Assembly: GCA_965207375.1 (NCBI GenBank)
Contig: OZ242274.1
Location: 1,472,001 to 1,536,000 of the forward strand
Direction of reading: 5' to 3'
Length of the DNA stretch: 64,000 nucleotides
From: Nitrosopumilaceae archaeon
GTDB lineage: Archaea > Thermoproteota > Nitrososphaeria > Nitrososphaerales > Nitrosopumilaceae
Below, in pieces: positions 2,067-56,339 of the stretch. Below the pieces are notes generated by a model. It ran no database searches and was not told the origin of the DNA. It was given only the letters and a program-made list of their open reading frames with translations. The position numbers were made by a program, and so were the translations under genes. The stretch's first letter is position 1; every line of letters starts with the position of its first letter.

Positions 2067-2070
2067 GTGA

Positions 2071-7236: not shown

Positions 7237-7238
7237 TA

Positions 7239-7879
7239 TGTGTAATCTGCGGGTGTTTGGATGTGGGACATGAAGTTATAGAGACCTGAGAATGTGGACA
7301 CAAACAAAAAACTCAAAATCAAAGATGTGTCTTTATTTATTTTGAATTTAATAGTGAATCAATCTTTTGTTCTAGTCTATCTAACTTACCACAGTTCTCT
7401 TGTACTGCACTCTTCAATCCACTTACTGTATTCTTCAATCCACTTACTGTATTCTTCAATCCACTTACTTCATCTTTCATTTCCTTTATGGATGTATGAG
7501 TACTTTGCATTTCAACATTAAATGAATCAAATTTTGTACTCAATGTGTCTAATCGATTTATAATATCATCCATGAATTATACACATTATACGGTATTAAA
7601 AAAGCATCTGTTTTTTTAAAAATTGTTAATTACTTTCTATTTGCTTTAATACTTCTGCAATTTTAGGCCATAATGGACTAGAGTATTTCTTGCTATTTGC
7701 TTCAGCCTCTGTAGCCGTCATAGGATTGTCATGTTGTAATAATCCAAATCCTGCCAAAACTCTAGTTGATGGAAAGAACAAGTGGAAAACAATAATTCAA
7801 AATGCTAGTCTGTACAAGGAAAATTCTATCTAAGCGTGAAATTTCAATTTGGAGAAAATTAACACCCACAGATTACACA
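7239..7879. mobile_element. inverted-repeat-bounded, non-autonomous element-like segment
   Basis: 19-bp IR TGTGTAATCTG(C/T)GGGTGTT at both ends; no transposase inside. Confidence 0.5.
7337..7573 (-). CDS. small coiled-coil protein with 21-bp repeats
   Basis: VSGLKNT heptad repeats. Confidence 0.55.
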   Translation of the reverse strand: MDDIINRLDTLSTKFDSFNVEMQSTHTSIKEMKDEVSGLKNTVSGLKNTVSGLKSAVQENCGKLDRLEQKIDSLLNSK

Positions 7880-7955
7880 GAACCGATTTTTGAAAAATTA
7901 TTATACTAGTGTGTTATAGTATAATCGTGAACAAATTACTTTTTAAAACAAAAAC

Positions 7956-8132
7956 AATTAAAGTTTGTAAATTGCATTCTTTTTCACATGATAATTAAAG
8001 TTTGTAAATTGCATTCTTTTTCACATGATAATTAAAGTTTGTAAATTGCATTCTTTTTCACATGATAATTAAAGTTTGTAAATTGCATTCTTTTTCACAT
8101 GATAATTAAAGTTTGTAAATTGCATTCTTTTT
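7956..8132. repeat. perfect 37-bp tandem repeat, ~4.8 copies (iteron-like)
   Basis: unit AATTAAAGTTTGTAAATTGCATTCTTTTTCACATGAT, no spacers, in AT-rich intergenic DNA. Confidence 0.95.
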
Positions 8133-8545
8133 AAAATCAAATGAAAAATGCAGTAAACTTTTCTTGACCAAATAATTGTGTTAAAAATCAGTAAGAAAAG
8201 TCAATTTTTAGGCACATGTGGGCATGAATCTCAAATCAGAGACGAAGAAAAATTTTATGAAAAAATATGCATAAAAAGTGAATCTATCATAAATACCACG
8301 TTCAAACTATTTGATGATTTTTTATTGATAATGCCTGATACTGGGACATAAAGTGCCCAGATGAAATACACAAGGAGGTACTTGCAGAACGCGTTTTAAT
8401 TCAAAACAATAATGATAAAGAATCCTAATGTGTGCCCAGATAATATAATGATATCAAAAATAAAGCACAATGTAAAAAAGTACAAAATAAGAAATTACAT
8501 TTACATTTGAAGATTAAAATAATACGCCCACTTTATGCATATATT

Positions 8546-8939
8546 ATGTACCTAACTGAGCAAACCTCTACCTGTCCACGTTTCCTGGCAATATTTTGCC
8601 ATGGCCCTGTCTGTTCCTATGCGTATGTGGCTATCTCTGGTAACATATCCTATACGATAAAACGCCCCCCCCCCCTTTTGTGAGGGGCAGCGCAGGTGCG
8701 ACTCTACAAAGAATCGTACGGTTTTGGAATTTGCAGATAAATCCAGGATGTTATGTGATACCTGTGTTGGTTTCATCAAACGTAACTCTAACATAATTAC
8801 AATTTTAGCTAAAAGTATAGAGTGTGGCAAGACAGAAAATTATGATACTATAAAACGCTGTCTCTGGTGCAGAAAACATCTCTGCAAACCATACATGAAA
8901 CAGCACACTCATCACACACGGAGAGACTATGGCGTTTAG
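8546..8939 (+). pseudogene. Cys-rich hypothetical gene split at a C11 tract
   Basis: ATG 8546 frame stops at 8683 just after C11 (8665-8675); loss of one C joins it to ORF 8724-8939. Confidence 0.5.
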
Positions 8940-9222
8940 ATTTTCATCCGATCAGATAGCTGATTTGGCACAAATTTTAGGCGGTAAAACAGGGGAGGCA
9001 ATATCTAATTTAATGGATGATACTATATCTCATTATTACATATACGGCTATGACTGTACCGATGAACCAGTCACTGTTAAAATCAGTATTGATACCTTGG
9101 AGGCAGTTTCAGATTTTGGTCATTTGCATGAACTAAATGCTATACGTGAGTGCATGAGGTGTACAAAACAGGATTATATCGTACTGTACGGCAGGGCAGC
9201 AGTCAAGGAGGTAACAGCATGA
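8929..9222 (+). CDS. hypothetical protein
   Basis: part of a translationally coupled gene chain. Confidence 0.6.
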   Translation: MAFRFSSDQIADLAQILGGKTGEAISNLMDDTISHYYIYGYDCTDEPVTVKISIDTLEAVSDFGHLHELNAIRECMRCTKQDYIVLYGRAAVKEVTA

Positions 9223-9632
9223 GCTGGCTATATGTAGATAACGATAACAGTTCTGTTCAGCATTATTTTTATGATGTATCATCGTTATGTGGACAAATAA
9301 GCCTACCTTGTGCAGGTGTAGTATCTGCACGTCTCAGGTGTACGTGCAATACCTGTCGTGATATTTTAAAATCAACAAAGGTATACGGTCTTACCAAACG
9401 CATAAAAAAACAGCTAGACACAATAAACCAAAAAAATCTACACAACTTTGGCTGTGATACCAAACACATGCTACACAACTATCTGACATCAGGAGATTTG
9501 ATATCCTTTGATGATTTGGTGTCTATAATTTCTGATAGTATTGATAAACAATATCCGGTAGCACATGTGGTACAACTCATTTCTACCGGAAGATACCTTT
9601 GCGTACATGGCTGCATGGAGTATAGGCCATGA
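9219..9632 (+). CDS. Cys-rich hypothetical protein
   Basis: GGAGGT SD and ATGA overlap at 9219; ATGA overlap with next gene. Confidence 0.6.
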   Translation: MSWLYVDNDNSSVQHYFYDVSSLCGQISLPCAGVVSARLRCTCNTCRDILKSTKVYGLTKRIKKQLDTINQKNLHNFGCDTKHMLHNYLTSGDLISFDDLVSIISDSIDKQYPVAHVVQLISTGRYLCVHGCMEYRP

Positions 9633-9871
9633 AATTATGCTTTTTGTCCGGGCGTACCGGGGAATTTTCTGATGACGTAGAAAACCCTGCCAAACCCTTT
9701 AGCGATACCGTGGACAATGGTGACATGTGGATTTTGGTGCAGGGGACTGTATCAGGTGTACATGACTTTAACTTCAAAAACTATAGAAACTTCAACGACA
9801 TTATGGGAGGTTCTTCGGAATTGGTACAGACCGGAATTATGATACAAGAAGAGTCGTCCTCACCGGAATGA
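9629..9871 (+). CDS. hypothetical protein
   Basis: ATGA overlaps at both ends. Confidence 0.55.
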   Translation: MKLCFLSGRTGEFSDDVENPAKPFSDTVDNGDMWILVQGTVSGVHDFNFKNYRNFNDIMGGSSELVQTGIMIQEESSSPE

Positions 9872-11034
9872 ATAAAAAAATAGCCGATATCAAAATCGGC
9901 AAACGATTTAGATTACATGCTGACGTGGAATCATTGAAACAATCCATAGCAGAAAACGGACTGTTTCATGGTATTGTGATATCACCTGATAACGAACTGC
10001 TTGCCGGATACCGCAGATTAATAGCATGCAGGGAATTGGGACACAAAACAATACTGTGTAATGTGATAGATGTGGATTCAGCAAAGTGTGAGCTTGCATC
10101 AAACAAGGAGCAAAAATCATTTACACCAAGTGAAATTTATGCCGTCTGCAAATACGTCCAGTCAAACACTTGCAGGGGCAGACCAAAGTCTGGTCAAAGC
10201 TCAAAGTATCGAGGTCCAGTTGAAAAAAATGTAGAGAGTTTAACAGGCATATCATGCAGACAAATCTCTAAAATAAAATCTGTAATGGCAGCTTCTGAAT
10301 CAGATGAAACACTCAAACAGGTTGCACAAGAATTAGATGACGGCAAAATAAATGTGGATTCTGCCTACAAGACGGTCCGCACCAAACAACAGTATACTGC
10401 AGAATTAGCACAGATGGACGATACTAGACAAACCCGCAAAGACGTCACGCTGTATAATGGCGACTTTAGAGACATGAATATACCAAATGAATCAGTACAT
10501 CTCATATTTACTGATCCGCCGTACAGGGACTGTGATTTAGACAATTACACGGATCTGGCAAAACATGCAGAATCGATTCTGGTACCAGGTGGTTCATTGT
10601 TTTGTATTGTACCAAACGCCCATATTCATGAATTGATACCTGTATTGACACAGCATGGATTGACATACCACTGGACGTGTGCCATACAGCACTCATCATG
10701 GGGCACTAATGTCATGTGGGGAAAACATATCAGCGTACGATACAAGCCGCTAGTTTGGTGTGTCAAGGGTACACGTAGAACTAGACAAAATGTTAGTGAC
10801 ATGGTCAAATCCTCAAAGCCTGCAAAGTCACTGCATCCGTGGGAGCAATCAACTGTAGAATCTGACTATTACATCTCGACAGTTACGATACCAGGAGAAA
10901 CCATACATGACCCTTTTATGGGTTCAGGCACCTTTGGGGTATCAGCAGTATCAAACAAAAGAAAATTTATCGGTGCTGAAATTGAACAAAAATATTACGA
11001 CTATGCAGTCAGGCGAATAAACGCGATATCATGA
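9868..11034 (+). CDS. ParB/Srx-domain + N4/N6 DNA methyltransferase fusion
   Basis: LLAGYRRLIA ParB motif; TDPPY and DPFMGSGT motifs in beta-class order. Confidence 0.88.
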   Translation: MNKKIADIKIGKRFRLHADVESLKQSIAENGLFHGIVISPDNELLAGYRRLIACRELGHKTILCNVIDVDSAKCELASNKEQKSFTPSEIYAVCKYVQSNTCRGRPKSGQSSKYRGPVEKNVESLTGISCRQISKIKSVMAASESDETLKQVAQELDDGKINVDSAYKTVRTKQQYTAELAQMDDTRQTRKDVTLYNGDFRDMNIPNESVHLIFTDPPYRDCDLDNYTDLAKHAESILVPGGSLFCIVPNAHIHELIPVLTQHGLTYHWTCAIQHSSWGTNVMWGKHISVRYKPLVWCVKGTRRTRQNVSDMVKSSKPAKSLHPWEQSTVESDYYISTVTIPGETIHDPFMGSGTFGVSAVSNKRKFIGAEIEQKYYDYAVRRINAIS

Positions 11035-11219
11035 AACTAGACCGTACAATATTGAACCTACTACAGAACCGTAGATATTCTACACGTACCGATGTTATCG
11101 CGTATAATCTAGGTGGTGATATAAACAGAGAAAAGATAATTGCTGCCCTCTGGCGACTGGCAGATTCTGGACAGATACGTCTCAATGCAGATGGTACATG
11201 GGAGGCAATACTGACATGA
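11031..11219 (+). CDS. small winged-helix protein
   Basis: ILNLL...ALWRLADSGQI...GTW wHTH pattern. Confidence 0.6.
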   Translation: MKLDRTILNLLQNRRYSTRTDVIAYNLGGDINREKIIAALWRLADSGQIRLNADGTWEAILT

Positions 11220-11268
11220 ACTTTAAATCTATTCAAAACATCGTTGATATCATCTGGGAGAATTTGAA

Positions 11269-11643
11269 ATGATAGGCAAAAAACTACCAAAACCAATAAT
11301 CAAACTTATGATTAAAGAGGAATTATTTGTACCCGTAATTGATGGTAGCGGTTTAGGTTTGAATGAAGGTTTCTTAGAACTTGTGAGGGAAATACAAAAA
11401 AGTAAAGAATGTGGTGGGAATTTAACAAAAGCAGTATGGTGGGCAATTCAAGAATGGTGTCCTGATTTGGAAAAAAAAGTATGGGTGTTACTAGTTGATG
11501 GTGTGTTTTGGGCAATGTTGCAACTTGATCCTACACTTGTCAGTGAATTTGGCAAATACTTGGCAAAAGATCAAAGTAAAGCGTTACTAGAAAGAATCAA
11601 AACCATATCAGAATTACAGAGACATAATGATAATCTAAAATGA
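11269..11643 (+). CDS. hypothetical protein, WCPDL family (paralog of 21935-22249)
   Basis: shared G-x3-N-x2-F...WCPDL...DG-x2-W pattern. Confidence 0.65.
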   Translation: MIGKKLPKPIIKLMIKEELFVPVIDGSGLGLNEGFLELVREIQKSKECGGNLTKAVWWAIQEWCPDLEKKVWVLLVDGVFWAMLQLDPTLVSEFGKYLAKDQSKALLERIKTISELQRHNDNLK

Positions 11644-11855
11644 CTGACACTAGTGTTTCTGTAGATGATATTAGTGCAGATGAGGATACATGAATTATCA
11701 AAACGACACATCTGGCATAATTATACTATATAGTGGCAAGCCAGTTAGATTTGTAGACGATACTTGAGATTGCCTGTAAATATTTACATATGCAGTTTAT
11801 GTAACCGGCAGTTTACTGGTGCAGAAAATTATGCCAGACACAGGAGGACCTGTAA

Positions 11856-12053
11856 ATGAGCAATCAAATGATACACGTTTATGTATATATTGAGACTATC
11901 CTGGAGCACACACACCTGTTGAGACTAGCAGATTCTGAACAAATGTTACACTATGAAAACGGTGTATACAAACCAGATGGTGATATCAAGGTAGAGAACA
12001 TGATATATGATTTAGCAGCCAGATACAAAACAGGGCAAGACTATTTTTTGTAA
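11856..12053 (+). CDS. short paralog of the helicase D5_N-like segment
   Basis: HLLRLADSEQMLHYENGVY vs HFLSLRDTREILYYENGIY in 12218-14230. Confidence 0.5.
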   Translation: MSNQMIHVYVYIETILEHTHLLRLADSEQMLHYENGVYKPDGDIKVENMIYDLAARYKTGQDYFL

Positions 12054-12217
12054 CAGAGGGTGCTGATTCTTCTAGTTATGACATCCCCGTACGTGTGATT
12101 TGATTCTCAGACGCATATGAATCATGAGACCTTGAAAAATAAACTGAATTTAGAATCTGAAAAAAACGGCATACTAGACATTCTGATACGAGGCGCAGAA
12201 GACATCATAGGCGACAC

Positions 12218-14230
12218 ATGACTAGTATAGATGAAAAGTCACTTGCAGGCTATGCAGAAAAAAAGTTTGGTTGTGCTGTATCCAGACTAGAAGAATTTTG
12301 TAAACGATATACTGGTGACAATACCGGATATGGGGTGTGCAGCAAGGGTGAGCATGACATATCCTCTGAAAATACCATATTTTGTTTTGAAGGTGGCAGG
12401 CACAATCTAGAAACATCTGCATGTGTGCATCTTGACTGCTTTTTGTCAGGACTAGAACGGGACACGATATCTCAGATTGACGGTACTATACAAAAACCAA
12501 AAAAGAGCAAAAAGCATGATACAGAAACTCCCGATACTGCAGAATTTGTCCAGATGTTAATGTCGCAGGTACATTTTTTGAGTCTGCGTGATACACGAGA
12601 AATACTATATTATGAGAACGGAATATACCGGTTTGGCGGCGAGGTGCTAATTGAAGAGATGGCCGAATCCCTTGTAAGTCAATATACTATCTGTACTACT
12701 TCTATGCGTATTGAAATTACAAACAGCATACGTTCTAGGACCTATGTGGACAGAGAGACCTTTGATGCTGATGTTGATATAATTAATGTCAAAAACGGGC
12801 TATACAATATACAAGACGGCACATTTACACCACACAATCCAAGTTATGCTAGCCGTATGCAGCTAAACGTAGAATATCACCCCGGTATTGCCCCTAAGAG
12901 ATTTGTGTCCTTTATGGAGGAGATTCTGCCCGATATTGAGGATAGAACTATGGTATATGAGATGTTTGGTGCGATTTTGGTGAGTAGAATTTTGGATCTG
13001 CAAAAGATCTGTATCTTTGTTGGTGATGGTGCAAACGGCAAAAGCACATTACTAAAAACCATGACCGATATTATAGGCGTCAAAAACTGCTCGTTTCGTT
13101 CAATGCACTCGCTGATATACAACCGATTTGCAGCAGCTGACTTGGATGGAAAGCTAGCAAATATTTATGCTGATATCTCTGCTGATGAAATGAAAAATAT
13201 TGGATTGATAAAAAATCTAGTATCAGGGGATGAAACAAGCGTTGAAAAGAAAAACAAGTCCTCTTTTCCCATGAAAAATATTGCAAAGATGTTTTTTTCA
13301 TGTAATAGACTGCCTGATATTGAGGATGAAACAGGTGGAGTATTTAGGCGGTTTCATATTATTGAGTTTTTGACCGAATTTCATGGTGGTAAAGCAAAGG
13401 CTAGACTGTTAGATGAATTGATACAGGATTCAGAAAAAAGTGGAATATTGAATGTATTGATACAGCATGCCGGTACCATACTAAAAAAAGGTGAATTTAG
13501 TTATGCCCGTGATGTAGCTAGTATCAGAAAGGAATGGAAGGAGCGTGTAGATATGGTGTTAAGTTTTGTTAATGAAACAGTAGAGGCACATCCTGACTCT
13601 AATATAGCAAAGGATAGGTTATACGCTGAATATGCGAGGTACTGTGAGACAAAAAATGAGCGGCCAAAGGGTCAAAAGATATTCTCACAGAAAATGTCAA
13701 CATTTGGATACAAATGGGATAAACGGCGTTGGGAAGGCAAGGCACAAAATGTGTGGATAGGTATCCGGTTCAAGGGCTCAGTCACACCAGATGATACCGG
13801 TACAGTAAAGCCGGATACAAAGCCAGATGGTACCGATACAAAGCCAGATGGTACCGATACAAAGCCTGATGTGTCTAAACCAGAAATATCTAATAGTACC
13901 ATGTTGGGTATTGTGGATATTTTAAAGCCAGAATCTACAAAACAAAGTATTGTTGGTGATATATTTACGGCACTAGCAGATGAGAATGGGACATTATCCC
14001 AAAATGATCTAGTTACAGAAATGGTAAAATGTGAAAAATGGAACAAAGAGGAGGCCGTACGATATGTTGAGGAGCTAGTATCAGAGAAAAAACTCGTCAC
14101 CGGTCAGCCATCCAAGAAAAGATGGCGCTGCAAGTGTGGTGCAGGACCCTATGTTTCTGGTGAGGTAGCCTTTGCAGGCAAGCCCATCGAAGAGTATCAC
14201 AAGGGCGACGGCCACGAGATAATTTTCTGA
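12218..14230 (+). CDS. D5/P4-family SF3 helicase (primase-helicase type) without evident AEP domain
   Basis: INVKNG D5_N motif, Walker A GDGANGKST, FFSCNRLP motif C, RRF finger, D5 C-terminal wHTH; N-terminal Cys/His cluster. Confidence 0.9.
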   Translation: MTSIDEKSLAGYAEKKFGCAVSRLEEFCKRYTGDNTGYGVCSKGEHDISSENTIFCFEGGRHNLETSACVHLDCFLSGLERDTISQIDGTIQKPKKSKKHDTETPDTAEFVQMLMSQVHFLSLRDTREILYYENGIYRFGGEVLIEEMAESLVSQYTICTTSMRIEITNSIRSRTYVDRETFDADVDIINVKNGLYNIQDGTFTPHNPSYASRMQLNVEYHPGIAPKRFVSFMEEILPDIEDRTMVYEMFGAILVSRILDLQKICIFVGDGANGKSTLLKTMTDIIGVKNCSFRSMHSLIYNRFAAADLDGKLANIYADISADEMKNIGLIKNLVSGDETSVEKKNKSSFPMKNIAKMFFSCNRLPDIEDETGGVFRRFHIIEFLTEFHGGKAKARLLDELIQDSEKSGILNVLIQHAGTILKKGEFSYARDVASIRKEWKERVDMVLSFVNETVEAHPDSNIAKDRLYAEYARYCETKNERPKGQKIFSQKMSTFGYKWDKRRWEGKAQNVWIGIRFKGSVTPDDTGTVKPDTKPDGTDTKPDGTDTKPDVSKPEISNSTMLGIVDILKPESTKQSIVGDIFTALADENGTLSQNDLVTEMVKCEKWNKEEAVRYVEELVSEKKLVTGQPSKKRWRCKCGAGPYVSGEVAFAGKPIEEYHKGDGHEIIF

Positions 14231-14237
14231 TCGGCAC

Positions 14238-14527
14238 TTTTGTTCCATGTTCCAGATGAATTATTACTCTTCTATAATGACATATTATACACCAAATTTT
14301 TTGATTCTACAGCCTCAATGCATACCTGGAACATGGAACAAAATATCAAACTCTTCAAAATGGACTCTATTTGTCTGAAAGGCATCGATCATGTGGACTT
14401 TTTTTGTTCCACTTGTTCCACTTTGATTTTACCGATTTGCGAACTTTAGCCCAAAAATGACAAAAATGGCACATACGAAATTCGCTAAAATGAATTTGAT
14501 CTGGAACAAGTGGAATAAAGTGGAACA
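14238..14527. promoter_or_regulatory. candidate replication origin built from TGGAACA-type inverted repeats
   Basis: perfect 18-bp IR at 14238-14255 / 14326-14343; second IR at 14407-14420 / 14502-14515; immediately after the helicase stop. Confidence 0.55.
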
Positions 14528-15102
14528 CAGGCGTGTCATTTCGCAAATCAGACAAAAATCTTTGATCCCTCTTACGCCTAGCCAGATTTGATACTATGAT
14601 TTACAGTGCCAAAATTACCCATATTTTTGATGGAAATCATTTTTTTGCGATCCGAAATAGTGGGTATTTAAACCCCCGAAATAACACGATTTCTGTGCCT
14701 ATTTTGATCCCTGTTTGTTAACAAAACGGACAAAAACCCATTTTATGATATCTTTGATTTTTGATGGGAATATTTCAAATTGGCCAGATTGTGCCTCTGG
14801 TACCAATTTTGGGTCAAAATTGGCATTTTTTACGAAATTCGCACTCTCGGTACACCAAAGTGGTCTGCATAAAGAAAATAGATTAGATCGCTACATGTTT
14901 TTGTCTGATTTGATCTTTTCTGTTCACTATTTTCAAGGATTACAGATCCCACCCATACCTGACACTTTTCCACTTGCAAAACATCACGGACTCTGTCCAA
15001 AACTAACTTTGTTTCATCTGGAACACGCGATGATACTCTTTGATCCATACATTATACCACACAGGCACGAATTTGGTTTGTGCCAGATATCATTTCTGAT
15101 CC

Positions 15103-17493
15103 ATGTCTGATTCGCTACTGCTTTTATCAAACATGATACACAACGGTACTATACTGTTAAAGTTCTATAATGTGACATCACAAAATATCGTCTGTATATC
15201 AAAACCATACAAGCCATATTCTTTGGTGAATCATCCAAATGGTACCATACAAAAAACCAACAGTATCACTGGCCAAAAGATACGATGTAATAAAATACCA
15301 TACAGGGGCACATCTGAATCAGATTTAGAGTCAGAAATTAACCAAAGACACTCGTATTTGTGGGATGCAGGTTTAATTCCAGGCTGCTATTATGCCATAC
15401 AGGGCAAGGTTCTAGTCCGAGTACCACATGATATAGATGAAGATCTATTACACAAAATACTACACTCAGGTATAGGGGCTGGTCTGCCAGATGTTGAATC
15501 ATACAAACAAGAGATGACAGAAACTGCTTTGACTCTAAATGAGCCAATTCCGGACATACGCAGGGTAGCATTTGACATTGAACTTTCAGCAGTTGACGGA
15601 GAGATAAATGTAGAAAATCCCATATATTCAGTAACTGCTGTTTCGTTATCTTCTGAATCTGAATCTGTATGTTATGTTGTAGAGCCTGGCGGCATCAAAC
15701 ATATCACACAGGGAATAGAGGTAATTCCATGTGATACAGAAGGTATCATGATACGAAAAGCTCTGAACCATTTGGCGCAATATCCTGTATGGTTATCATA
15801 TTATGGAGAACAATTTGATTTGCCGTATCTGCATCATCGATGTGTGCGTCTTGGGTCTAGTTTAGATGACATTTTATACAATACAGGAGGCAGGATAACT
15901 CCGATACGACAGGTACATGTGGATCTATACTCGGTGTATAGCAATCCTTCGCTTCAAGCATATGCGTTTGGTGGAAGATATGATACGTATTCTCTAGATG
16001 CTGTGGCCTTTGGCATGCTTGGCCGTCACAAGTCAGGTACCGGTGAGGCAGCAGGTATTTTATCTGGAGACGATCTTGCCATATACTGCCATACTGATGC
16101 CAGACTGACATATGATCTAACAACATTTGCAGAATCTGCCACACTAAACATCCTAGTGATTATCTCTAGAATTTCTTCTTTACCCATCGATGTAGTATCT
16201 CAGACTAGGGTATCTACATGGACACAAAGCATGCTGAACCGACGACATAGAATCAAGGGAATTTTGATTCCAACAAAACAAGACATACAAGAAAAAACCA
16301 AAATGTTGGGAGTATCTGTTGCCAAGCCCATACAAAAGAACAAAAAGTATCGGGGCGGCATGGTGATGCAACAAACTTGTGGCCTATTTTGGAATATGAC
16401 GGTACTAGATTATGCCTCAATGTATCCGCATATTATACAGTTACACAACATATCTTATGAAACTATACAGTGTCCACATGATTCTTGTAAAGAATATACC
16501 ATACCTGGTACTGCATACTGGCGTTGTACAAAACAAAACGGCATGCTTGCATCTTGTATTGGTGCGTTACGTGAACTACGAGTTCAATATTACAAAAAAT
16601 TATCAAAAAATACCAAAATAAGCAAGCAAAGACGCATGCTGTACGAGTCAGTAGCCGGTGCAATCAAGGTGTTTATGAATGCCTCATATGGGGTCATGGG
16701 CTCTGAATTTTTCCCGTTATACTATCTACCGGTTGCAGATTCTGTAACTGCTGTTGGCAGAAAAATGATAACAGATACGATATCTGTATGTGAAAGTAAA
16801 GGTGTCAAGGTGTTATACGGCGATACTGATTCACTCTTTGTTGCACATGCCCCCTTGCAAACGTTACATGGTATAATATCTGCCACACTTACAATGCACG
16901 GGGCAGAACTTGAAATAGACAAACAGTACAGGTTTGCATTACTTACGGGTCTAAAGAAAAACTATCTGGGAATTCGTGATGATGGTACAGCAGATGTAAA
17001 GGGATTGCTTGGAAAAAAATCAGACACACCACAATTTATCAGAAATTCCTTTGAGAGAGTCGTTGGTATATTGTGTGGGGTCTCTGAAGAAGCTCAGATA
17101 GAGTCAGCAAAAGGTGACATATCTGATCTCATTAAACAGGATGTAAATAAAATACGTACAGGTGACTATACTCTGGGAGATATGACGTACAGAAAAAAAC
17201 TAAAGCAACCTTTGAATAAATATTCTGGCTCACCTCAACATGTTGCTGCTGCTAAAATGCTACAAAATGTAACTGGCATAAACATACAGGAGGGAAGCGT
17301 GATAAGATTCATCAAGACAAAATCAGGCCCCGTACCATTTGAGCTAGCCTCTTCTTCACAAATTGATACAGAAAAATACATTGATGCGCTAGGCTCAGTT
17401 GTATCTCAGATATTGCCACCACTAGACATGACAGCAGAAGGTGTCATTACAGGTACGACACAAAACTCTATGGATAATTTCTTTGCTGTCTAG
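15103..17493 (+). CDS. polB: family B DNA polymerase (archaeal, thaumarchaeal PolB-like)
   Basis: ExoI FDIE, ExoII FDLPYL, ExoIII YCHTD; Pol motifs DYASMYP, KVFMNASYG, YGDTDS; C-terminal PIP box QNSMDNFF. Confidence 0.95.
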   Translation: MSDSLLLLSNMIHNGTILLKFYNVTSQNIVCISKPYKPYSLVNHPNGTIQKTNSITGQKIRCNKIPYRGTSESDLESEINQRHSYLWDAGLIPGCYYAIQGKVLVRVPHDIDEDLLHKILHSGIGAGLPDVESYKQEMTETALTLNEPIPDIRRVAFDIELSAVDGEINVENPIYSVTAVSLSSESESVCYVVEPGGIKHITQGIEVIPCDTEGIMIRKALNHLAQYPVWLSYYGEQFDLPYLHHRCVRLGSSLDDILYNTGGRITPIRQVHVDLYSVYSNPSLQAYAFGGRYDTYSLDAVAFGMLGRHKSGTGEAAGILSGDDLAIYCHTDARLTYDLTTFAESATLNILVIISRISSLPIDVVSQTRVSTWTQSMLNRRHRIKGILIPTKQDIQEKTKMLGVSVAKPIQKNKKYRGGMVMQQTCGLFWNMTVLDYASMYPHIIQLHNISYETIQCPHDSCKEYTIPGTAYWRCTKQNGMLASCIGALRELRVQYYKKLSKNTKISKQRRMLYESVAGAIKVFMNASYGVMGSEFFPLYYLPVADSVTAVGRKMITDTISVCESKGVKVLYGDTDSLFVAHAPLQTLHGIISATLTMHGAELEIDKQYRFALLTGLKKNYLGIRDDGTADVKGLLGKKSDTPQFIRNSFERVVGILCGVSEEAQIESAKGDISDLIKQDVNKIRTGDYTLGDMTYRKKLKQPLNKYSGSPQHVAAAKMLQNVTGINIQEGSVIRFIKTKSGPVPFELASSSQIDTEKYIDALGSVVSQILPPLDMTAEGVITGTTQNSMDNFFAV

Positions 17494-18964
17494 TTTTCCT
17501 CCAGGGTACACCATGCGGGAGCAACAAAAAAAGATAATACAGCAGATATACGAGGCTGTACAGTCAGGGTATCGACACATTATACTCTGTGCACCTACAG
17601 GAATAGGAAAATCACATATCGGTGTAACCTTTGGCAGGCATTTTGGTTCATGTGATGTTGTTGTGTCACAAAAGGTGTTACAAGATCAGTATTGTACAGA
17701 CTTTGGATTTTTGACATCATCTAAAGGACGAAGCAACTATCCGTGTATGGCATCAGGTGAGAAGAGCTGTGAGGCAGGCCTCTGCTCTTGGCACGAAAAT
17801 AAAAAGATACAGTTTTGTAACTATAAACCTGCAATTACAGATTATATTGTAACAGATTCTGGCAATGTAATTTCACCACCTGATTCCTGCAGATATTACG
17901 ATGCAAAATATACTGCTTTACTCTCAAAATATGCAGTATACAATTATCTGATATTTTTTCATTTTGCACGAGAAAAACTGATGAAAAACTCTGCCTGTAT
18001 TGTGGCAGACGAAGCTCATGAGATTGAAATGTATTTGGCAGACTTTGGCTCGGTGTCTTTATCTCCAGAAGAGCAGTTTGGGGTGTCATCTCTAGAGCCT
18101 GATGGTATCATAGAATCCTTGTACCAGTGTATACAGTATCACAAAGCAGATGACATATCTGGTGTATACAAGATACAGCGATGTAACATGATATTACGTG
18201 AATTAAAAAAGCGACCTGAAAACTATACCATACAAAAAAGGGGTGATACGATATACATTACTCCAATAGATGTTTCGTATCTGGCAAAAACTGTGTTTGA
18301 TTCACCGTACAATTTGTTCATGTCAGGTACCATACATCCAGATGTGTTTTTGCCTACAATGGGATTTGATTCACGTGACTGTGCGTATATAGAGGCAAAA
18401 CCTTCCCCCTTTGAAAAACAAAACAGACAGGTAAAGTTTTGCAATGTGATATCTTTGAATCATGCCTCTACTCCTGCAGATTACGGTATCGCATATTCTG
18501 CTGTTTCAAAAATAGTATCACATCATCCAGAAAAGGGGCTGATACTGTGCACCAGTACAAAACAATGTGATGAGATAACTAGAATTTTAGGAAAACGTGC
18601 AGTACCTGCTTATGGTGTGTACAGGGATGAGGCCATATCAAAACATGCGTCTTCTGATAATACCATACTAGTATCGCCCAGTCTATACAACGGACTTGAT
18701 TTAACAGACGATTTGTCTAGATTTCAGATTATTTTAAAAGCACCATATCTGTCAATGTCAGATATCAGGACTGCTAGTATCGCAAAAAAATCTGCCTTGT
18801 GGTACAGGTATCAGGCTTTAGCACGATTTCTTCAAGGATGTGGCAGGTCAATACGCCATGATACAGATTATGCTGTAACTTATGTTATTGATTCAGCAGT
18901 ATTAGAGCTGTTATACACCATGAAACGGTACATTCCCCATGCGTATCAGGATATGTTACCATGA
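17441..18964 (+). CDS. DinG/XPD-family SF2 helicase
   Basis: APTGIGKS, GRSNYPC, DEAH, MSGT, QGCGRSIRH; true start may be ~17483. Confidence 0.9.
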   Translation: MSLQVRHKTLWIISLLSSFPPGYTMREQQKKIIQQIYEAVQSGYRHIILCAPTGIGKSHIGVTFGRHFGSCDVVVSQKVLQDQYCTDFGFLTSSKGRSNYPCMASGEKSCEAGLCSWHENKKIQFCNYKPAITDYIVTDSGNVISPPDSCRYYDAKYTALLSKYAVYNYLIFFHFAREKLMKNSACIVADEAHEIEMYLADFGSVSLSPEEQFGVSSLEPDGIIESLYQCIQYHKADDISGVYKIQRCNMILRELKKRPENYTIQKRGDTIYITPIDVSYLAKTVFDSPYNLFMSGTIHPDVFLPTMGFDSRDCAYIEAKPSPFEKQNRQVKFCNVISLNHASTPADYGIAYSAVSKIVSHHPEKGLILCTSTKQCDEITRILGKRAVPAYGVYRDEAISKHASSDNTILVSPSLYNGLDLTDDLSRFQIILKAPYLSMSDIRTASIAKKSALWYRYQALARFLQGCGRSIRHDTDYAVTYVIDSAVLELLYTMKRYIPHAYQDMLP

Positions 18965-19920
18965 ATTTGTCTGATGTTATAAATGAACATCTGCTTGGCG
19001 GGGGTCTAGATGTACTGTATCAGCGCGGATTTCCAATAGGTGAGATACTGCAAGGAGGTACGATACATGATACACAGTTGCTCAAACTTGCCACAGAATC
19101 AGTGGCATCATCAATATCACAGTCAAAGATGAGTCTCTCTACGGGTATAGTATCGATACATTCGAAAATATTTCCACGCGAAGCTGCAGTCTTTGCTGTA
19201 TCTGCTGTGTTAATTTCTCATATATCTGATGATTTGGTTGCAAAAAAGTATGCTCTCTCTTGTGGTAAATTATTTTGTAATGTTTTGTCAAAATCATGGG
19301 ATACTTGGGGCAGAGATATTGCTGAATCTATACTACACTGTATAGTACAGGATGGATTTTTTCTAGTACCGGTATCATCATATCTTGACTCTTCGGTCAA
19401 AATAGGATCTGACACCTGGCGGCTTGCAAATCGTGATGTACGGTCTGGTTTTGTCCATGGACTGTCTAAAAAGGAGATTGTGCGCATGATTCTGCCGCAG
19501 GCCACTGATGTCTTGTATGGTATGATAAAATCTGCAAAATGTTCTGATAATATCACCTTGGATGATTATGTCTCCCAGATACGAGATATTATGCCCATAC
19601 ATCGCAGTGTAGGAGTATCGGGACGACCACCCTGTGTCATACATGCAATACAATACATGTCACAGGGTGAGAATCTCAGCCATTTTGGACGATTCCTTGT
19701 TGCATCTTGGCTGTTACGGGCTGGCATACCACAAGAGGATGTGTGCGGGTACTTTACAGGAGCTCCGGATTATTCTAAAACCATAACAAAATCCCAGGTA
19801 TCCCACATGGCAAAATCTAGATACATGGTACCGTCCTGTAAAAAGATTGCATCAGCTGGCCTTTGTTGTAAAGATGAGACGTGTCGTAATATCACAAATC
19901 CGGTCCAGTATGGCACCTAA
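18961..19920 (+). CDS. priL: archaeal primase large subunit
   Basis: PPC...GENLSHFGRF...APDY...PSC...GLC...C..ITNP Fe-S domain pattern. Confidence 0.9.
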   Translation: MNLSDVINEHLLGGGLDVLYQRGFPIGEILQGGTIHDTQLLKLATESVASSISQSKMSLSTGIVSIHSKIFPREAAVFAVSAVLISHISDDLVAKKYALSCGKLFCNVLSKSWDTWGRDIAESILHCIVQDGFFLVPVSSYLDSSVKIGSDTWRLANRDVRSGFVHGLSKKEIVRMILPQATDVLYGMIKSAKCSDNITLDDYVSQIRDIMPIHRSVGVSGRPPCVIHAIQYMSQGENLSHFGRFLVASWLLRAGIPQEDVCGYFTGAPDYSKTITKSQVSHMAKSRYMVPSCKKIASAGLCCKDETCRNITNPVQYGT

Positions 19921-20812
19921 ATCCTTTTTGTATCCATGTGTTACGCCTGCACACTATGATGTGTTACGTGTAAATCCAGAATTTGTAAAATTGGTCAGAC
20001 CACACACTAGAGAGGAGCGTAAGGCATTGCATGAATCTTTGCTTGTACATGGACAGCGCGAGCCTATAGTTGTGGATTCTGAAGGTACTATTGTAGCCGG
20101 TCACAATAGGGCAGAACTCTTGATGTCTATGGGCCGACCAATTAAGACAATTATCGGGGACTTTGAGGATGACAACGCAAAGGCGCAATATGTCATAGAA
20201 TCAAATTTGATTGGCAGGCACTATTCAAATACATTTTTGAGGATAGTAGCTGCTCTTCCATTATATCGAATCATAAAGTCAAAACAGCATTTTGGCGGGG
20301 ACCGTAAAACAGTCAAAAAAGTAGGCTGTACCACTGCAATTGTTGGAAGACATATTGGTGTGAATAGAAATCTGGTACAGCAGGCAATATGGCTGTATGA
20401 GAATGCACCACCTGATGTAATAAAATCATTACAGGACGGTGGTACCAAAATCACGGCTGCATACAACTTGTTGCGACATGCAAAAATTGGTACTATACAT
20501 CATGTGAGTCATGTTTCTAGAAAATCCAAAGATACAACAAAAAAGTTCAAAAATGATACAAAACGGTACAGATTACTACACACGTTATTGTCAGGTTATA
20601 CATTACGCGATGATCTAATGAAGGTGACCGGTACCACAAACAAAAATACCTTGCAGGCGTTACTATTTTGTATCAGACAGAGGGGTATCAAGGTATATTG
20701 TACACCTGCTTATACTGTGTCTCGCAGTTGGGGGATTTGTTGCAAATGTGGCGTATCTTGTATGGGTATAGATACGACACAAGGCACTATATGTGAAAAA
20801 TGTATTCTTTAA
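19910..20812 (+). CDS. ParB/Srx N-terminal domain protein with HTH and C-terminal Cys cluster
   Basis: GQREPIVVD...IVAGHNR, ESNLIGRH; start moved to ATG 19910, which overlaps priL. Confidence 0.8.
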   Translation: MAPKSFLYPCVTPAHYDVLRVNPEFVKLVRPHTREERKALHESLLVHGQREPIVVDSEGTIVAGHNRAELLMSMGRPIKTIIGDFEDDNAKAQYVIESNLIGRHYSNTFLRIVAALPLYRIIKSKQHFGGDRKTVKKVGCTTAIVGRHIGVNRNLVQQAIWLYENAPPDVIKSLQDGGTKITAAYNLLRHAKIGTIHHVSHVSRKSKDTTKKFKNDTKRYRLLHTLLSGYTLRDDLMKVTGTTNKNTLQALLFCIRQRGIKVYCTPAYTVSRSWGICCKCGVSCMGIDTTQGTICEKCIL

Positions 20813-21259
20813 AGGGTGATACTATCAAATTAGCAGCAGTTGCTAGTTATTTGATACATACATGTAACATGCCAAAACGCCTCAAGACAAGTCATTTTCT
20901 GCTGTTGTGTAACTATATCATGCTGGGACTATTTTTCAGCTCAGATGTACCATATGATAAGGTCAAAATGTATCATGCGGTTTGTTATCAAAATTGATGG
21001 TATCGTTTAGTATGTGGACTGTGCGCAGGACGAAACTAGTCATAAACATTACAGGCGATGCGATACTATACAAGACATTAAAGCATTTTGTGATACTATA
21101 TGGTTTGAGCATATCTATGAAAATGTACCGACGTATCTTTGATGTGTCTATATCGTGTCTGTAATTTTTTTATAACTGGGACTATATACCAAATATTTTG
21201 TGTATATTCAATGATGTCATTTTACAAGAATTCTGTGGACTAGTATTTTTGAGAAAGAA

Positions 21260-21466
21260 ATGAGCTGCATAAACTTATGCGTGCAGTACGATATAAAGAT
21301 GCACGGAGGTGTACCCAAGTATACAGAATGTGCAAAAAGGTGTAGTGTATGCGGTATATGCCTAAATTATAAAGGCCTCTGGTGTCCTTGCTGTAGCCTG
21401 CGCCTATGGTGCAATCCAAGGAGCAACAAGAGAAGAAATGCAATATGTCATAGGCGTGTACCATGA
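21260..21466 (+). CDS. small zinc-finger protein
   Basis: RCSVC...GLWCPCC..RL..NPR, a pattern recalled from thaumarchaeal small proteins. Confidence 0.65.
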   Translation: MSCINLCVQYDIKMHGGVPKYTECAKRCSVCGICLNYKGLWCPCCSLRLWCNPRSNKRRNAICHRRVP

Positions 21467-21717
21467 ACTGTATAATATGCGGTGCAACCTTTACCCGCAA
21501 ATGCAACAAACTAACCTGTAGCCCCAAATGTTCCCGCGCTAATTTAATCAACAAGATGCGTATCCAAAACGAAAAGAGGCGTAATGTCGCAATAAAACCG
21601 GAATTGCTTGAAGGCATAATCGCCTTACCTTTGCGCGTGAACTGCCTACCTCATGAATTAATCAACGATTCAGGCACTATACATGAAATCCGGAGGTTAT
21701 TAAAACGGGGTGTCTGA
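21463..21717 (+). CDS. small zinc-finger protein
   Basis: CIICGATF...TCSPKC motif; ATGA overlap. Confidence 0.6.
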   Translation: MNCIICGATFTRKCNKLTCSPKCSRANLINKMRIQNEKRRNVAIKPELLEGIIALPLRVNCLPHELINDSGTIHEIRRLLKRGV

Positions 21718-21934
21718 TGCCACAAAATAATCAAATTCGTAAAATTATATCAAAATATTGAGTAAATATTATAAACTAATGTTTTTGTTTAGTTTATCGT
21801 ACACAGGGGTACCAGTATATACTAGTGTAAAGGTACCAATACTGGTTTTAGTATGATTCTTGTGATAATGACTGAATTGAACAAAACGAGACTGTACTAT
21901 GCTCTTTAATCTACCTGTACTAGTATACAGGTTC

Positions 21935-22249
21935 ATGGTTGCACAAGACGTGCTTGTAATTCACCCAAACGGGGGGACCAGCATAAATCCGGCGTTCCAG
22001 AATTGTCTTTATGAGCTAGCAGAGAAAAAGAAATATGACGATACCTTGGGGAATGTGGCACAATTGACAGTACGGCAATGGTGTCCGGACCTGACAGAAG
22101 AGTTTCAACATATCATATATGACGGGATCAAGTGGATATCTTTTCAGGCTCAACCAGAGTTTTACTCTAATGCTGATGTGGAGGCTCTAGAAAATAGACT
22201 GAACCAGCATCAGAGACGCCTTGAAACATTACGAAAATATCAACAATGA
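21935..22249 (+). CDS. hypothetical protein, WCPDL family (paralog of 11269-11643)
   Basis: motif similarity to 11269-11643. Confidence 0.65.
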   Translation: MVAQDVLVIHPNGGTSINPAFQNCLYELAEKKKYDDTLGNVAQLTVRQWCPDLTEEFQHIIYDGIKWISFQAQPEFYSNADVEALENRLNQHQRRLETLRKYQQ

Positions 22250-22471
22250 ACGATAATTTCTTTAGTTCGAATCATTGACTCTGAAAATTGATATCACAAC
22301 ATGAGATGATATCATGACTTTGTGTGATTCTTGGAATGCAATCAAACGAGAATTGATTATACACGGTATGATTAACAAAATGACATTTGCCGAATCCCTC
22401 GATTTGATAGAACTGTTACAGTTTCGTACACGGCAGAAAATCATCGATTCTATATATGATACACACAGAAA

Positions 22472-23044
22472 ATGATATTTACAAAACTAGACGATATTCC
22501 TAGAAATAGGTACAAGACGATAATCATGGATGTACCTTGGCCGGTGAATGCGACATTATCCAGTAAAATATATCGTGTGAAAACAATGACTTATGATTTG
22601 CTGAGTATACCAGAGATAAAATCAATACCTGTTGCAGACTTTGCTTCAGAGAACTGTATTATTTTCTTTTGGACTACACACAGGTTTTTGCCTGATTCCT
22701 TTGATGTTTTAAAACAATATGGGTTTTCGTACCATGGTACAATATCATGGTACAAACATGATGGTTTGACACATTTGGGATTTTATCGTGGTACTGAATT
22801 TTGTCTTGTTGGGTATCGTGGCAGATGGACTGATTGTTTAGATTTATGTGGCGAGCCTTTGAAGAGTTTTATTGATGAGCCCTCTCGTGGACATTCGATA
22901 AAGCCTGCGTCTTTGGATAGAATCATATTGAAAAAGACACGAGGTCCGCGCCTTGACATGTTTGCACGTGTGCAAAAGCCCGGCTTTGATAGCTTTGGTG
23001 ATCAGGTTATATCTTCTGATACCCTTGAGCGATATTTGGTATGA
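22472..23044 (+). CDS. MT-A70-family adenine methyltransferase
   Basis: YKTIIMDVPW, FFWTT, TEFCLVG, HSIKP, LDMFAR. Confidence 0.88.
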   Translation: MIFTKLDDIPRNRYKTIIMDVPWPVNATLSSKIYRVKTMTYDLLSIPEIKSIPVADFASENCIIFFWTTHRFLPDSFDVLKQYGFSYHGTISWYKHDGLTHLGFYRGTEFCLVGYRGRWTDCLDLCGEPLKSFIDEPSRGHSIKPASLDRIILKKTRGPRLDMFARVQKPGFDSFGDQVISSDTLERYLV

Positions 23045-23115
23045 TGTTGTATCATCTGGGTTTTTTGATTTGTATCAACAATGTTTATTTTAAACTATAT
23101 ACGATACGTGATACC

Positions 23116-23394
23116 ATGAATGATAATTTAACACAAATGAGGACACAGATAGACAGGATAGATTATGATATAATATCTGCCGTACAAAAGCGAATGATAC
23201 TTGTAAGAAAGATAGCAGCATACAAGAAGGAAAACTCGATAGATATTATAGACAAATCAAGAGAAGATTCTGTATTGGCCTTTTTTGAGGATAATTTTGA
23301 ATCAAAGGGTATGGGTGCAGTTGCAGGAAGAATGATAGCAGAAGCACTAATTGATATAGCTATATCCGAAGAGAATCAACTTTTATCTCGTTGA
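23116..23394 (+). CDS. chorismate mutase (AroQ / CM_2 type)
   Basis: LTQMRTQIDRID...KR...IAAYK...D.SRE; TATA-like TTTAAA ~25 bp upstream of ATG 23116. Confidence 0.85.
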   Translation: MNDNLTQMRTQIDRIDYDIISAVQKRMILVRKIAAYKKENSIDIIDKSREDSVLAFFEDNFESKGMGAVAGRMIAEALIDIAISEENQLLSR

Positions 23395-23457
23395 TTGTGT
23401 GAAGTCTGTAAAATGTACAGTAAACTCTGATTACTTGAATTTGTTCTAGTTTCAAAC

Positions 23458-24348
23458 ATGATGCCAAAAGATGTTACCATGCTGCAATCTGCATTTAAGA
23501 GGTATTATTTTGAGAATTTTAATTTAATGCATATTGATGATATGAAACATCACGAGTTTGGGTACCAAAGGTTTGATGATACCATGTATAGACATGTGGT
23601 TTTTTCTAGTGTTGAAGAATTTCGTTTGTTTTTGATGAATAAAATCCCTAGTGATGTGTATTGTTCTAGTGCATATTATGACTTTCCTGGGTTAGCCATG
23701 AAAGACAAGGGATTTCGTGGGGCTGATTTGATATTTGATATAGATGCTAAAGACTTGAAGTTATCATGTCGTGATAAACACGTGATATACACATGTGTTA
23801 CTTGTGGTTCTTTGAAGAATATGTGTAGATGTGATGTTTCCAAGGTACAGGTACAGTCGCTTGCCTGTGATAGGTGCATTGATGCGGCAAGAAATGAGGC
23901 TGTAAAATTGGTGAGTATTTTATCTGATGACTTTGGGATACCCGATGTTTCTGTTTATTTTTCTGGCAACGAGGGGTTTCATGTTCATGCAGGAAATACA
24001 TATGCGAGTCTTGATTCACGTCAGCGCCAGGAGATATGTGATTATGTGTCGTCTCGTGGTGTTAAAATCGATTCGCAGGTGACAACTGATGTTTCTCGGA
24101 TTTTCCGGCTTGCAGGTACTCTGAATTCTAAATCTGGACTTGCAAAGATGCATTGTGATAATCTGGATGAATTTGTGCCGTATACAGAATCCTGTGTGAT
24201 AGATGATGATACTGTAGATATTTGTGCTGATTGTCCTGTGTCGTTTAGTTTGAAGGGTGAGCAGTTTGGGCCGTGGTACAACGAGACTGTTAGTTTGCCA
24301 AGGTTTGCAGCAGTGTATCTGGTGTGTAAGAGGTTTGGAAAGATGTGA
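23458..24348 (+). CDS. priS: archaeal primase small subunit (compact)
   Basis: EFGY, DLIFDIDAKD, FSGNEGFHVH, KID..VT.D.SRIFRL.GTLNSKSGL. Confidence 0.92.
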   Translation: MMPKDVTMLQSAFKRYYFENFNLMHIDDMKHHEFGYQRFDDTMYRHVVFSSVEEFRLFLMNKIPSDVYCSSAYYDFPGLAMKDKGFRGADLIFDIDAKDLKLSCRDKHVIYTCVTCGSLKNMCRCDVSKVQVQSLACDRCIDAARNEAVKLVSILSDDFGIPDVSVYFSGNEGFHVHAGNTYASLDSRQRQEICDYVSSRGVKIDSQVTTDVSRIFRLAGTLNSKSGLAKMHCDNLDEFVPYTESCVIDDDTVDICADCPVSFSLKGEQFGPWYNETVSLPRFAAVYLVCKRFGKM

Positions 24349-39073: not shown

Positions 39074-39111
39074 GATTTTATCTATTTATATAACAATTGT
39101 GGACAACATAC

Positions 39112-50296: not shown

Positions 50297-50332
50297 GTAA
50301 CTGTTTCTTTTGTGACTGCACATTAAACCGAG

Positions 50333-52344: not shown

Positions 52345-52375
52345 GATTTTTTAAGAGGAATAGAAAAAGCAATTC

Positions 52376-56274: not shown

Positions 56275-56339
56275 TGCCTTTTAACACCACTATGTATGCT
56301 TGGTCGTACTCTTGTTTATACTTTAACGCATCACCAGTA

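Follow-up and report, generated by a model that had tools for sequence, protein, structure and literature searches.

Extra copies of replication genes in archaeal genomes have long been attributed to mobile elements. The described systems that compare most directly with the locus considered here are the thaumarchaeal integrative and conjugative elements (ICEs), which, in the available part of their published survey, are reported to carry a VirB4/VirD4 pair, VirB6, TadC, FlaI/PilT and ParB-like proteins along with defence and other cargo, and to have no relaxase (PMC6563490). According to the same part of that survey, all described thaumarchaeal ICEs have TFIIB next to ParB, and their replication modules consist of primpol fusions with a superfamily 3 (SF3) helicase, Cdc6, UvrD or, in one case (NitEve-E6), a casposon-like PolB (PMC6563490). 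Here we report on a 64-kb stretch of DNA, hereafter the window (C1:1472001-1536000), from G000, an ammonia-oxidising archaeon of the family Nitrosopumilaceae (family f1 in the trees below) whose assembly comprises 4.30 Mb in four contigs (C1-C4). We propose that the gene block at 8.9-24.6 kb of this window is probably the replication and partition module of an integrated conjugative element of about 190 kb, reaching from C1:~1.338 Mb to window position ~60 kb.

Like the thaumarchaeal ICEs, some of which likewise have an SF3 helicase, the proposed element is large and integrated, and it has conjugation ATPases, ParB-like genes and cargo. It differs from them in that its SF3 helicase lacks the primpol fusion seen there, and in that neither a TFIIB-ParB coupling nor an integrase was found here; moreover, PriL, PriS, PolB1 and XPD/DinG go without mention in the available part of the survey (PMC6563490). 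Family 1 casposons are also thaumarchaeal self-replicating elements with a PolB, but they combine Cas1 with a protein-primed PolB, whereas the 50 open reading frames (ORFs) of the window that we scanned include no Cas1 and the polymerase here is of the PolB1 type with a PCNA-interacting protein (PIP) box. The original prediction, made from the letters of the window alone, had not recognised the gene combination as a described thaumarchaeal replicon class. As the ICE class has already been described, to judge by the part of its survey at hand (PMC6563490), what is new is the replication module, and among the papers available to our literature search none deals with this combination of genes.

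The 50 window ORFs were searched against Pfam and 10 ORFs against PHROGs, and a further 20 large ORFs upstream of the window were searched against Pfam. Relatives were sought by a profile scan of one genome per species across 185,579 species, and three of them are compared throughout: G311 (same genus; contig C26, 19.7 kb), G401 (OZ245003.1) and G402 (OY759726.1). Coordinates are window positions unless prefixed with C1. These searches confirmed that the block is composed of a D5-like SF3 helicase, a PolB1, an XPD/DinG helicase, PriL, PriS, ParB-like proteins and methyltransferases, a composition that had been read correctly from the sequence and is now backed by Pfam, PHROGs and motif evidence. 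Between 8929 and 24593 all credible ORFs lie on the plus strand and, for the most part, overlap the next one by 4-74 bases (at 9629/9632, 9868/9871, 15103/15110, 17441/17493, 18961/18964, 19847/19920, 23041/23044 and 24345/24348), again as predicted. The sole minus-strand ORFs within the block, 8552-8830 and 21240-21617, are mechanical, and the latter has no Pfam family.

Reading along the plus strand, the block includes a fusion of a ParB_N-like domain with an N6/N4 DNA methyltransferase (9868-11034; Pfam), a homologue of which (31% identity) immediately precedes the helicase gene in the G402 element. This is followed by a decayed remnant of a second D5_N-type gene (11856-12182), recovered when the helicase was compared by tblastn with the region upstream of its gene, at whose position the G401 element has an intact D5_N paralogue of 419 residues (G401_32617-33876; Pfam). 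Next come the SF3 (D5/P4-type) helicase of 670 residues (12218-14230; Pfam D5_N, DUF5906 and Pox_D5), an origin-like site (14238-14525), and a small ORF of 131 residues (14715-15110) that overlaps the start of PolB and has no Pfam or PHROG family. The family B DNA polymerase, which is RNA-primed, of the PolB1 type and equipped with exonuclease domain and PIP box, occupies 15103-17493 (Pfam DNA_pol_B, E 1e-46) and is followed by an XPD/DinG-family superfamily 2 helicase (17441-18964; Pfam Helicase_C_2, ResIII and DEAD_2), a PriL-like primase large subunit of 319 residues (18961-19920; Pfam DNA_primase_lrg), and a ParB-like nuclease/partition protein (19847-20812) assigned by PHROGs, whose G401 homologue has a ParB_N domain. 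An MT-A70 family adenine methyltransferase (22472-23044; Pfam) and the catalytic primase subunit PriS of 296 residues (23458-24348; Pfam DNA_primase_S) complete the set. Between these two lies a chorismate mutase type II-like ORF (23041-23394; Pfam E 1.3e-13), which overlaps the MT-A70 gene by 4 bases and has no obvious role in a replication block.

The order of the four central genes recurs elsewhere. Our species-wide profile scan recovered 10 loci with relatives of the helicase, and in three of these (G311, G401 and G402) we found helicase, PolB, DinG and PriL in the same order, the synteny for which the original prediction had proposed a search; its recurrence in three further genomes means that the arrangement is not a product of chance alone. 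Helicase, PolB and DinG are 41-47% identical to their counterparts in the three relatives, and PriL is 33-37% identical. Given that the G+C content of G402 is ~68% against 38% here, the module must have been kept across a long divergence.

The intergenic segment between helicase and polB has also been retained in its architecture. At 14238-14525 in the window, TGTTCCA/TGGAACA doublets form two inverted pairs around AT-rich spacers, with 8 of the 21 window copies of this motif concentrated within these ~290 bp. At the corresponding position G311 has four 17-nt repeats with a GTGTTCCA core and an inverted arm, G401 has ATTCCAGTC arrays with inverted partners, and G402 has GGACATAG doublets inverted around its only AT-rich patch; the arrays of G311 and G401 share a TTCCA core. 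Thus, all four elements, whose proteins are about 45% identical, share an iteron/AT-rich architecture in the helicase-polB interval, and this conservation is the best evidence that the segment is a putative cis-acting replication site. A second repeat region lies just to the left of the point at which the original prediction began the element. This AT-rich region (7403-8132) comprises a 21-bp unit repeated 3.2 times (7403-7469) and a 37-bp unit repeated 4.8 times with 100% matches (7956-8132); the G+C fraction is 0.33 over 7001-9000, and the region is a candidate for a partition or second origin-like site. In the same genome we also observed a truncated second copy (C1:346072-348081) comprising the repeat region, the 3' end of the helicase gene, the iteron site, the small ORF (94% identical) and the first 91 codons of PolB. 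Its nucleotide identity ranges over 85-96%, being 96% over the helicase 3' end, the iteron region and the PolB codons and 85-92% for the stretch 7885-8390 (C1:346072-346440), and it indicates that the element has been present twice.

The original prediction had further regarded the block as a self-contained element of 16 kb without a capsid, and this part does not stand, since VirB4-, VirD4-, T2SSE-, T2SSF- and TrbL-like genes lie upstream of the window. In C1:1339714-1468042, that is 4-130 kb upstream of it, the ORFs run colinear with the neighbours of the module in G402 and, less strictly, in G401. They include a TrwB/VirD4-like protein of 958 residues (C1:1414579-1417455; Pfam TrwB_AAD_bind and AAA_10), a VirB4-like protein of 634 residues (C1:1370512-1372416; Pfam AAA_10 and the TraG P-loop), a T2SSE ATPase (E 3e-31) and a T2SSF protein (E 7e-19). 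Ten more of the large upstream ORFs have surface-protein, HD, AAA_16 or SNase domains or no match, and none of these ten is a capsid protein or an integrase. Replication and conjugation modules occur together in all three genomes with enough context (G000, G401 and G402), 7 kb apart in G402 and 35 kb apart in G401. The order is replication then conjugation in G402; replication, cargo with Dnd, then conjugation in G401; and conjugation, replication, then cargo with Dnd in G000. These three orders are one and the same circular order opened at different points.

As had been noted for the window, no relaxase, tyrosine integrase, capsid, terminase or Cas1 was found in its 50 ORFs by Pfam or in 10 by PHROGs, while transposases of four insertion sequence (IS) families are present. 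As there is no relaxase, a large SNase-domain protein may be considered a candidate DNA-processing enzyme; such a protein is found in all three elements (C1:1397098-1399131; G402 L064:5831-7813; G401 L062:9959-11347). At the border of the G402 element an ORF of 435 residues resembles a weak integrase match of G000, and a TFIIB-like ORF next to a ParB-like one is seen, by tblastn only, in the G401 element.

We then examined the helicase. The D5/P4 primase-helicases, such as vaccinia and monkeypox virus (MPXV) D5/E5, African swine fever virus (ASFV) C962R and PriRep of the Staphylococcus aureus pathogenicity island SaPI5, share with it a core of D5_N, SF3 ATPase and winged-helix domains; however, where their N-terminus bears a primase domain of the archaeo-eukaryotic (AEP) type, the protein here has a 91-residue domain with a C-x4-H...C-x4-C pattern. 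Its complete build is thus this N-terminal domain (residues 1-91), D5_N, the SF3 ATPase, the winged-helix domain and a C-terminal Cys/His tail. A profile built with 19 homologues matched the SaPI5 primase-helicase in the PDB (7ola, E 1.7e-39) and also ASFV C962R, in each case over residues 109-505 only. Likewise, an AlphaFold2 model (mean predicted local distance difference test score 79) gave the SaPI5, ASFV and MPXV (E5) primase-helicases as its best Foldseek matches. No AEP/Prim-Pol domain was detected in the helicase, and residues 1-110 lack any Pfam family, in agreement with the prediction of a D5/P4-type helicase devoid of its primase. Many of the more distant homologues have the Prim-Pol domain PF09250 and the closest ones do not, which indicates that the primase was lost in this helicase subfamily. 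In its place C41, H46, C69 and C74 are invariant across 17 of 17 sequences of the N-terminal domain. For this domain Foldseek returned no PDB match at E <= 0.001, and the highest Z that VIA-align reached among 48,161 chains was 3.9; neither gave a convincing match.

Database homologues of the helicase include P0002 and P0003, at 86% and 44% identity and on contigs of 77.8 kb and 15.9 kb. When the helicase and PolB were used as single-protein queries, IMG/VR gave no match, whereas profile scans recovered 80 metagenome and 8 IMG/VR loci with helicase relatives, in none of which is the N-terminal domain covered. PolB, PriL or PriS is nearby in none of these 88 loci, and a DinG-like neighbour is seen in one. 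As separate observations, a metagenomic protein of 989 residues (P0027) is a D5-like SF3 helicase fused to a helicase of the DinG/XPD type, and at the locus L199:1252-4995 two such genes adjoin each other; both are on unrelated contigs and hint at a recurrent functional pairing of the two helicase types. Elsewhere in G000, another D5-like helicase (28% identical; C1:145394-146659) lies a few kb from an ORF weakly matching tyrosine integrases (C1:151189-152400), and it likely marks a separate small integrated element.

PolB, PriL and PriS of the block are extra copies because canonical host copies stand elsewhere in the genome, a check that the original prediction had itself called for. The canonical PolB (C1:1147493-1149679) is 39% identical to the element PolB, and the host PriL-PriS operon lies at C1:629.6-631.4 kb. 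Element and host PriL align over their full length, with 34% identity over the C-terminal 199 residues, and the two PriS proteins are 47% and 62% identical in two segments. The element PolB keeps the motifs FDIE, YxxxD, DxxSMYP, KxxxNASYG and YGDTDS, ends in the PIP box QNSMDNFF, and finds its best PDB match in 1s5j (E 2.5e-136). PriS aligns with Sulfolobus solfataricus PriS (PDB 1zt2, E 1e-37) at the DxD, GFHV and zinc motifs, and the four cysteines of PriL at iron-sulfur (Fe-S) positions are invariant in four of four element sequences. In the alignment the XPD/DinG protein, to which two host paralogues are 33-34% identical, retains Walker A, DEAH and, at the Fe-S position, a cysteine cluster; a phmmer search of this protein and of PriL against the PDB gave no match. 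Judging by these intact motifs, the enzymes of the block look functional. PCNA, MCM and Cdc6 are each encoded once in the genome and in every case outside the element, which together with the PIP box agrees with the earlier suggestion that PCNA and accessory factors are borrowed from the host.

Compared with the cellular archaeal PolB1 (S. solfataricus Dpo1, 1s5j) and PriS-PriL (1zt2), the element proteins belong to the same families and share motifs, Fe-S cysteines and the PIP box. They differ in being extra, fast-evolving copies on a mobile element that stand beside an SF3 helicase instead of MCM, and in being shorter: part of the N-terminal region is missing from PolB, and PriS has 296 against 386 residues and PriL 319 against ~400. 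In a PolB tree with 12 further Nitrososphaeria PolBs and outgroups, five element-type PolBs group together (support 100) as sister to the cellular PolB of Nitrosopumilaceae (union 99), inside Nitrososphaeria (96). An approximately unbiased (AU) test rejected the grouping of 18 cellular Nitrososphaeria PolBs as one clade (p-AU 0.0017, at a cost of 49 log-likelihood units). Two points count against this placement: the tree and test used LG+G4 and a quick search, with a test group defined once the tree had been seen, and a first tree, sampled phylum-wide and built under a mixture model, did not resolve the position of the element clade. In a PriS tree of 17 rows the element PriS falls inside the Nitrosopumilaceae clade (support 100), while in the PriL tree the four element PriLs form a clade of their own (support 100) apart from 20 cellular sequences.

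The term 'captured' therefore stands for PolB and PriS, both of which branch with Nitrosopumilaceae genes, while PriL has a deep clade of its own. From these phylogenies we infer that the donor of PolB was probably the stem lineage of Nitrosopumilaceae and that of PriS a member of this family, and PriL would be an older acquisition specific to the element family. A second PriS is absent from the genomes of G311, G401 and G402, so that the element PriS is known from the G000 element only. The idea that the helicase's primase had been replaced by both host-type subunits consequently holds for this element but does not extend to its relatives, PriL being present in all four and a second PriS missing from three. 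Among 40 other Nitrososphaeria genomes sampled, none has a second PriS or an element-type PolB. We also noted that G407 (same genus, 3.2 Mb) has two full-length host-type PolB1 genes (C2:32096-34342 and 2796909-2799095), each 41% identical to the element PolB.

The presence of a separate PriL on a mobile element is itself unusual against the published record, as far as the available parts of the sources go: PriS and PriL are essentially single-copy in 142 archaeal genomes (PMC3914693), and PriL is nearly exclusively tied to chromosomal primases, with mobile elements using PriCT domains instead (PMC5862659). The nearest parallel is that of the PolpTN2/PriCT primases of archaeal plasmids, where, in the accessible portions of the reports, a mobile element likewise supplies a PriL-related priming function (PMC5862659, PMC3973330). 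However, in those the PriL-like or PriCT part is described as fused to the plasmid's own divergent AEP, whereas here PriL is full-length, separate and conserved, and the catalytic subunit is either a recently captured cellular PriS or, in the relatives, absent.

Several observations weigh against assigning the block to an integrated conjugative element. Set beside the described thaumarchaeal ICEs, the region has the VirB4/VirD4 ATPase pair and pilus and membrane parts, and it shows neither an integrase with an attachment (att) site nor the TFIIB-ParB pair. Genome-wide there are five matches to the tyrosine integrase family PF00589, none of them in the window or in C1:1.34-1.53 Mb; no att site, boundary repeat or clean boundary was found in G000; and TFIIB does not stand next to ParB in the window or region, the three TFIIB genes of the genome being elsewhere. 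TrbL/VirB6 is represented by a weak Pfam match in G402 only (E 0.0024), its G000 homologue having none. With many IS copies and an inversion of ~205 kb, the modules could have joined secondarily here, and the element is known from assembled contigs alone.

The limits of the element bear on one of these points. The ABC-transporter operon on the right-hand side (at window 60655) is conserved in same-genus genomes, and the left flank is not syntenic. The two flanks of the ~195-kb region (C1:1326945-1337752 and the ABC-transporter operon) are adjacent in G311 and G407, where their relative orientation is reversed. Of the spacer, 33 bp (window 60590-60622) recur as an inverted duplicate next to an IS at C1:1326865-1326897, from which it follows that the ~205-kb inversion ends in the spacer between the flank blocks. 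We had considered the adjacent flanks of G311 and G407 as a clean empty site and rejected this, as the inversion ends in the same spacer. Another candidate limit was a 489-bp direct repeat (5203-5690 and 59238-59723; 95% identical) made up of pieces of a gene for an Ig-like surface protein, and it too was rejected, since the G401 element contains a homologue of an ORF (1617-2066) lying to the left of the repeat. This ORF belongs to an observation of its own: tandem repeats of 21 and 33 nt make up two neighbouring coiled-coil ORFs at window 1617-2370, and for one of the two the G401 element has the homologue.

Of the alternatives, the secondary joining just mentioned can be given a definite form, in which a small cryptic replication and defence island and an ICE, unrelated to each other, have come to lie side by side through IS-driven rearrangement. 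The heavy IS load and the large inversion suit this explanation, as does the direct repeat bracketing window 5691-59237 and the 14 kb of IS copies and gene fragments between the last conjugation-linked gene and the ParB-methyltransferase gene. We nevertheless hold it to be unlikely, because the two modules are also found together in G402 and G401 in the same circular order, and because the ORF with a G401-element homologue lies outside the repeat.

An equally small chance attaches to a chromosomal, non-mobile accessory set of polymerase, helicase and primase that serves repair, damage tolerance or defence within a variable defence island. That the block adjoins Dnd-Pbe, type IIG and GmrSD genes and has yielded no integrase or att site would fit such a set, and archaeal PolB operons with proposed repair roles are known, at least from the available part of the ICE survey (NitGar-E5; PMC6563490); the host also has two XPD-like paralogues of the same build. 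On the other hand, an SF3 helicase of the D5 type with iteron arrays and ParB-like genes is replication equipment of the plasmid or virus type, the genomic context differs from genome to genome with conjugation genes always near, a truncated duplicate exists in the same genome, and the block is rare, with an element-type PolB or second PriS in none of 40 other Nitrososphaeria genomes. The weakest alternative, an integrated virus with its structural genes outside the window, or a satellite borrowing them, draws on D5-like helicases, PolB and ParB-methyltransferases being common in large double-stranded DNA viruses, on the fold matches to poxvirus, ASFV and SaPI proteins and on 7 of 20 large upstream ORFs without a Pfam family, but it is very improbable in that no capsid, portal or terminase appears in the 50 window ORFs (Pfam), in 10 (PHROGs) or in 20 large upstream ORFs, a result to be read with Pfam's tendency to miss divergent archaeal capsids, in that the upstream region holds type-IV-secretion-like ATPases instead, and in that PolB, PriL or PriS accompanies the helicase relatives in none of eight IMG/VR loci.

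If the block is indeed the replication and partition module of a conjugative element, a mechanism can be proposed, with the reservation, which counts against it, that all its biochemical steps are inferred. The D5-like SF3 helicase would recognise the iteron/AT-rich site through its winged-helix part and melt the DNA, serving as both initiator and replicative helicase in the stead of host Orc1/Cdc6 and MCM. A small Cys/His domain stands where the ancestral fused primase was, and priming would be provided in trans by a primase of the cellular type, for which all four elements encode PriL, and for which PriS is encoded by the element here and presumably supplied by the host in the relatives. The element PolB1 might then extend the primers on host PCNA via its PIP box, while the 5'-3' helicase of the XPD/DinG family could assist on the other strand or clear obstacles. 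The ParB-like proteins and methyltransferases may act in partition and self-marking, transfer would depend on the VirB4/VirD4/pilus-type genes upstream of the window, and the downstream third would be defence cargo.

A more specific version of this scheme, which we consider possible although rather doubtful, is that of a chimeric primosome, in which the SF3 helicase of giant archaeal conjugative elements, having lost its fused primase, recruits a cellular-type PriS-PriL via its zinc-type N-terminal domain. PriL would be the adaptor that captures host PriS, with a PriS gene added in the G000 element only, and the primers would be passed to the captured PolB1 on host PCNA. Were this true, it would be the first mobile element known to combine a viral-type helicase with a primase and polymerase of the cellular type, and the exchange of PolB and PriSL between element and host would have been caught in progress. 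Apart from this proposal, a full-length PriL emerges as a conserved gene of a mobile-element family, next to a PolB1 derived from the host lineage and a helicase that no longer has a primase of its own, one member having also taken PriS. It offers a testable case of mobile elements assembling replisomes from viral and cellular parts and of a rewired coupling between helicase and primase. If the extent proposed here is right, it would also extend the known thaumarchaeal conjugative elements to ~190 kb with a polymerase of their own, and would suggest that large defence loads (Dnd-Pbe, type IIG and GmrSD) are carried between ammonia-oxidising archaea by such elements.

This cargo lies downstream of the replication block on the plus strand. 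It begins with a type IIG restriction-modification/DrmMI-like enzyme of 1339 residues and an HKD-Snf2 (DrmD-like) helicase of 1106 residues (26129-33465; Pfam and PADLOC), followed at 36971-44135 by PbeA (PADLOC E 1e-164), PbeC (E 4e-62) and two ORFs without assignment, which form the restriction arm of an archaeal-type Dnd system. DndB, DndC, DndD and DndE with a cysteine desulfurase, for DNA phosphorothioation, occupy 45442-51505 (Pfam), and a Schlafen/AlbA_2 protein with a GmrSD type IV restriction enzyme 51562-54172 (Pfam); three HNH proteins are also found within the cargo. The G401 element carries a homologous Dnd cluster. A second Dnd cluster in G000 (C1:125027-130972) has 52-80% amino acid identity to that of the G401 element, which in turn is 34-61% identical to the window's own.

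On the minus strand at 54431-59103 there follows a nest of IS66, IS110 and IS5-like DDE_Tnp_4 elements (Pfam), which are multi-copy in C1 (91-99.7% identity). IS66-, IS630-like (DDE_3), IS110- and IS5-like copies in the window lie at 3589-5095, 5684-7240, 54431-55956, 56332-57806 and 58009-59103; each type has about 10-20 copies in C1 at 91-99.9% identity, which looks like a recent IS expansion in this contig. No tRNA gene lies inside the 64-kb window. As for the assembly as a whole, its 4.30 Mb compare with 1.1-3.2 Mb in genomes of the same family. C1 (2.16 Mb, G+C fraction 0.382) carries 46 of the 60 tRNA genes and every replication gene found. C2-C4 (2.14 Mb, 0.367-0.369) have only 14 tRNAs and almost no IS copies of the C1 type, and may be giant accessory replicons or foreign DNA.

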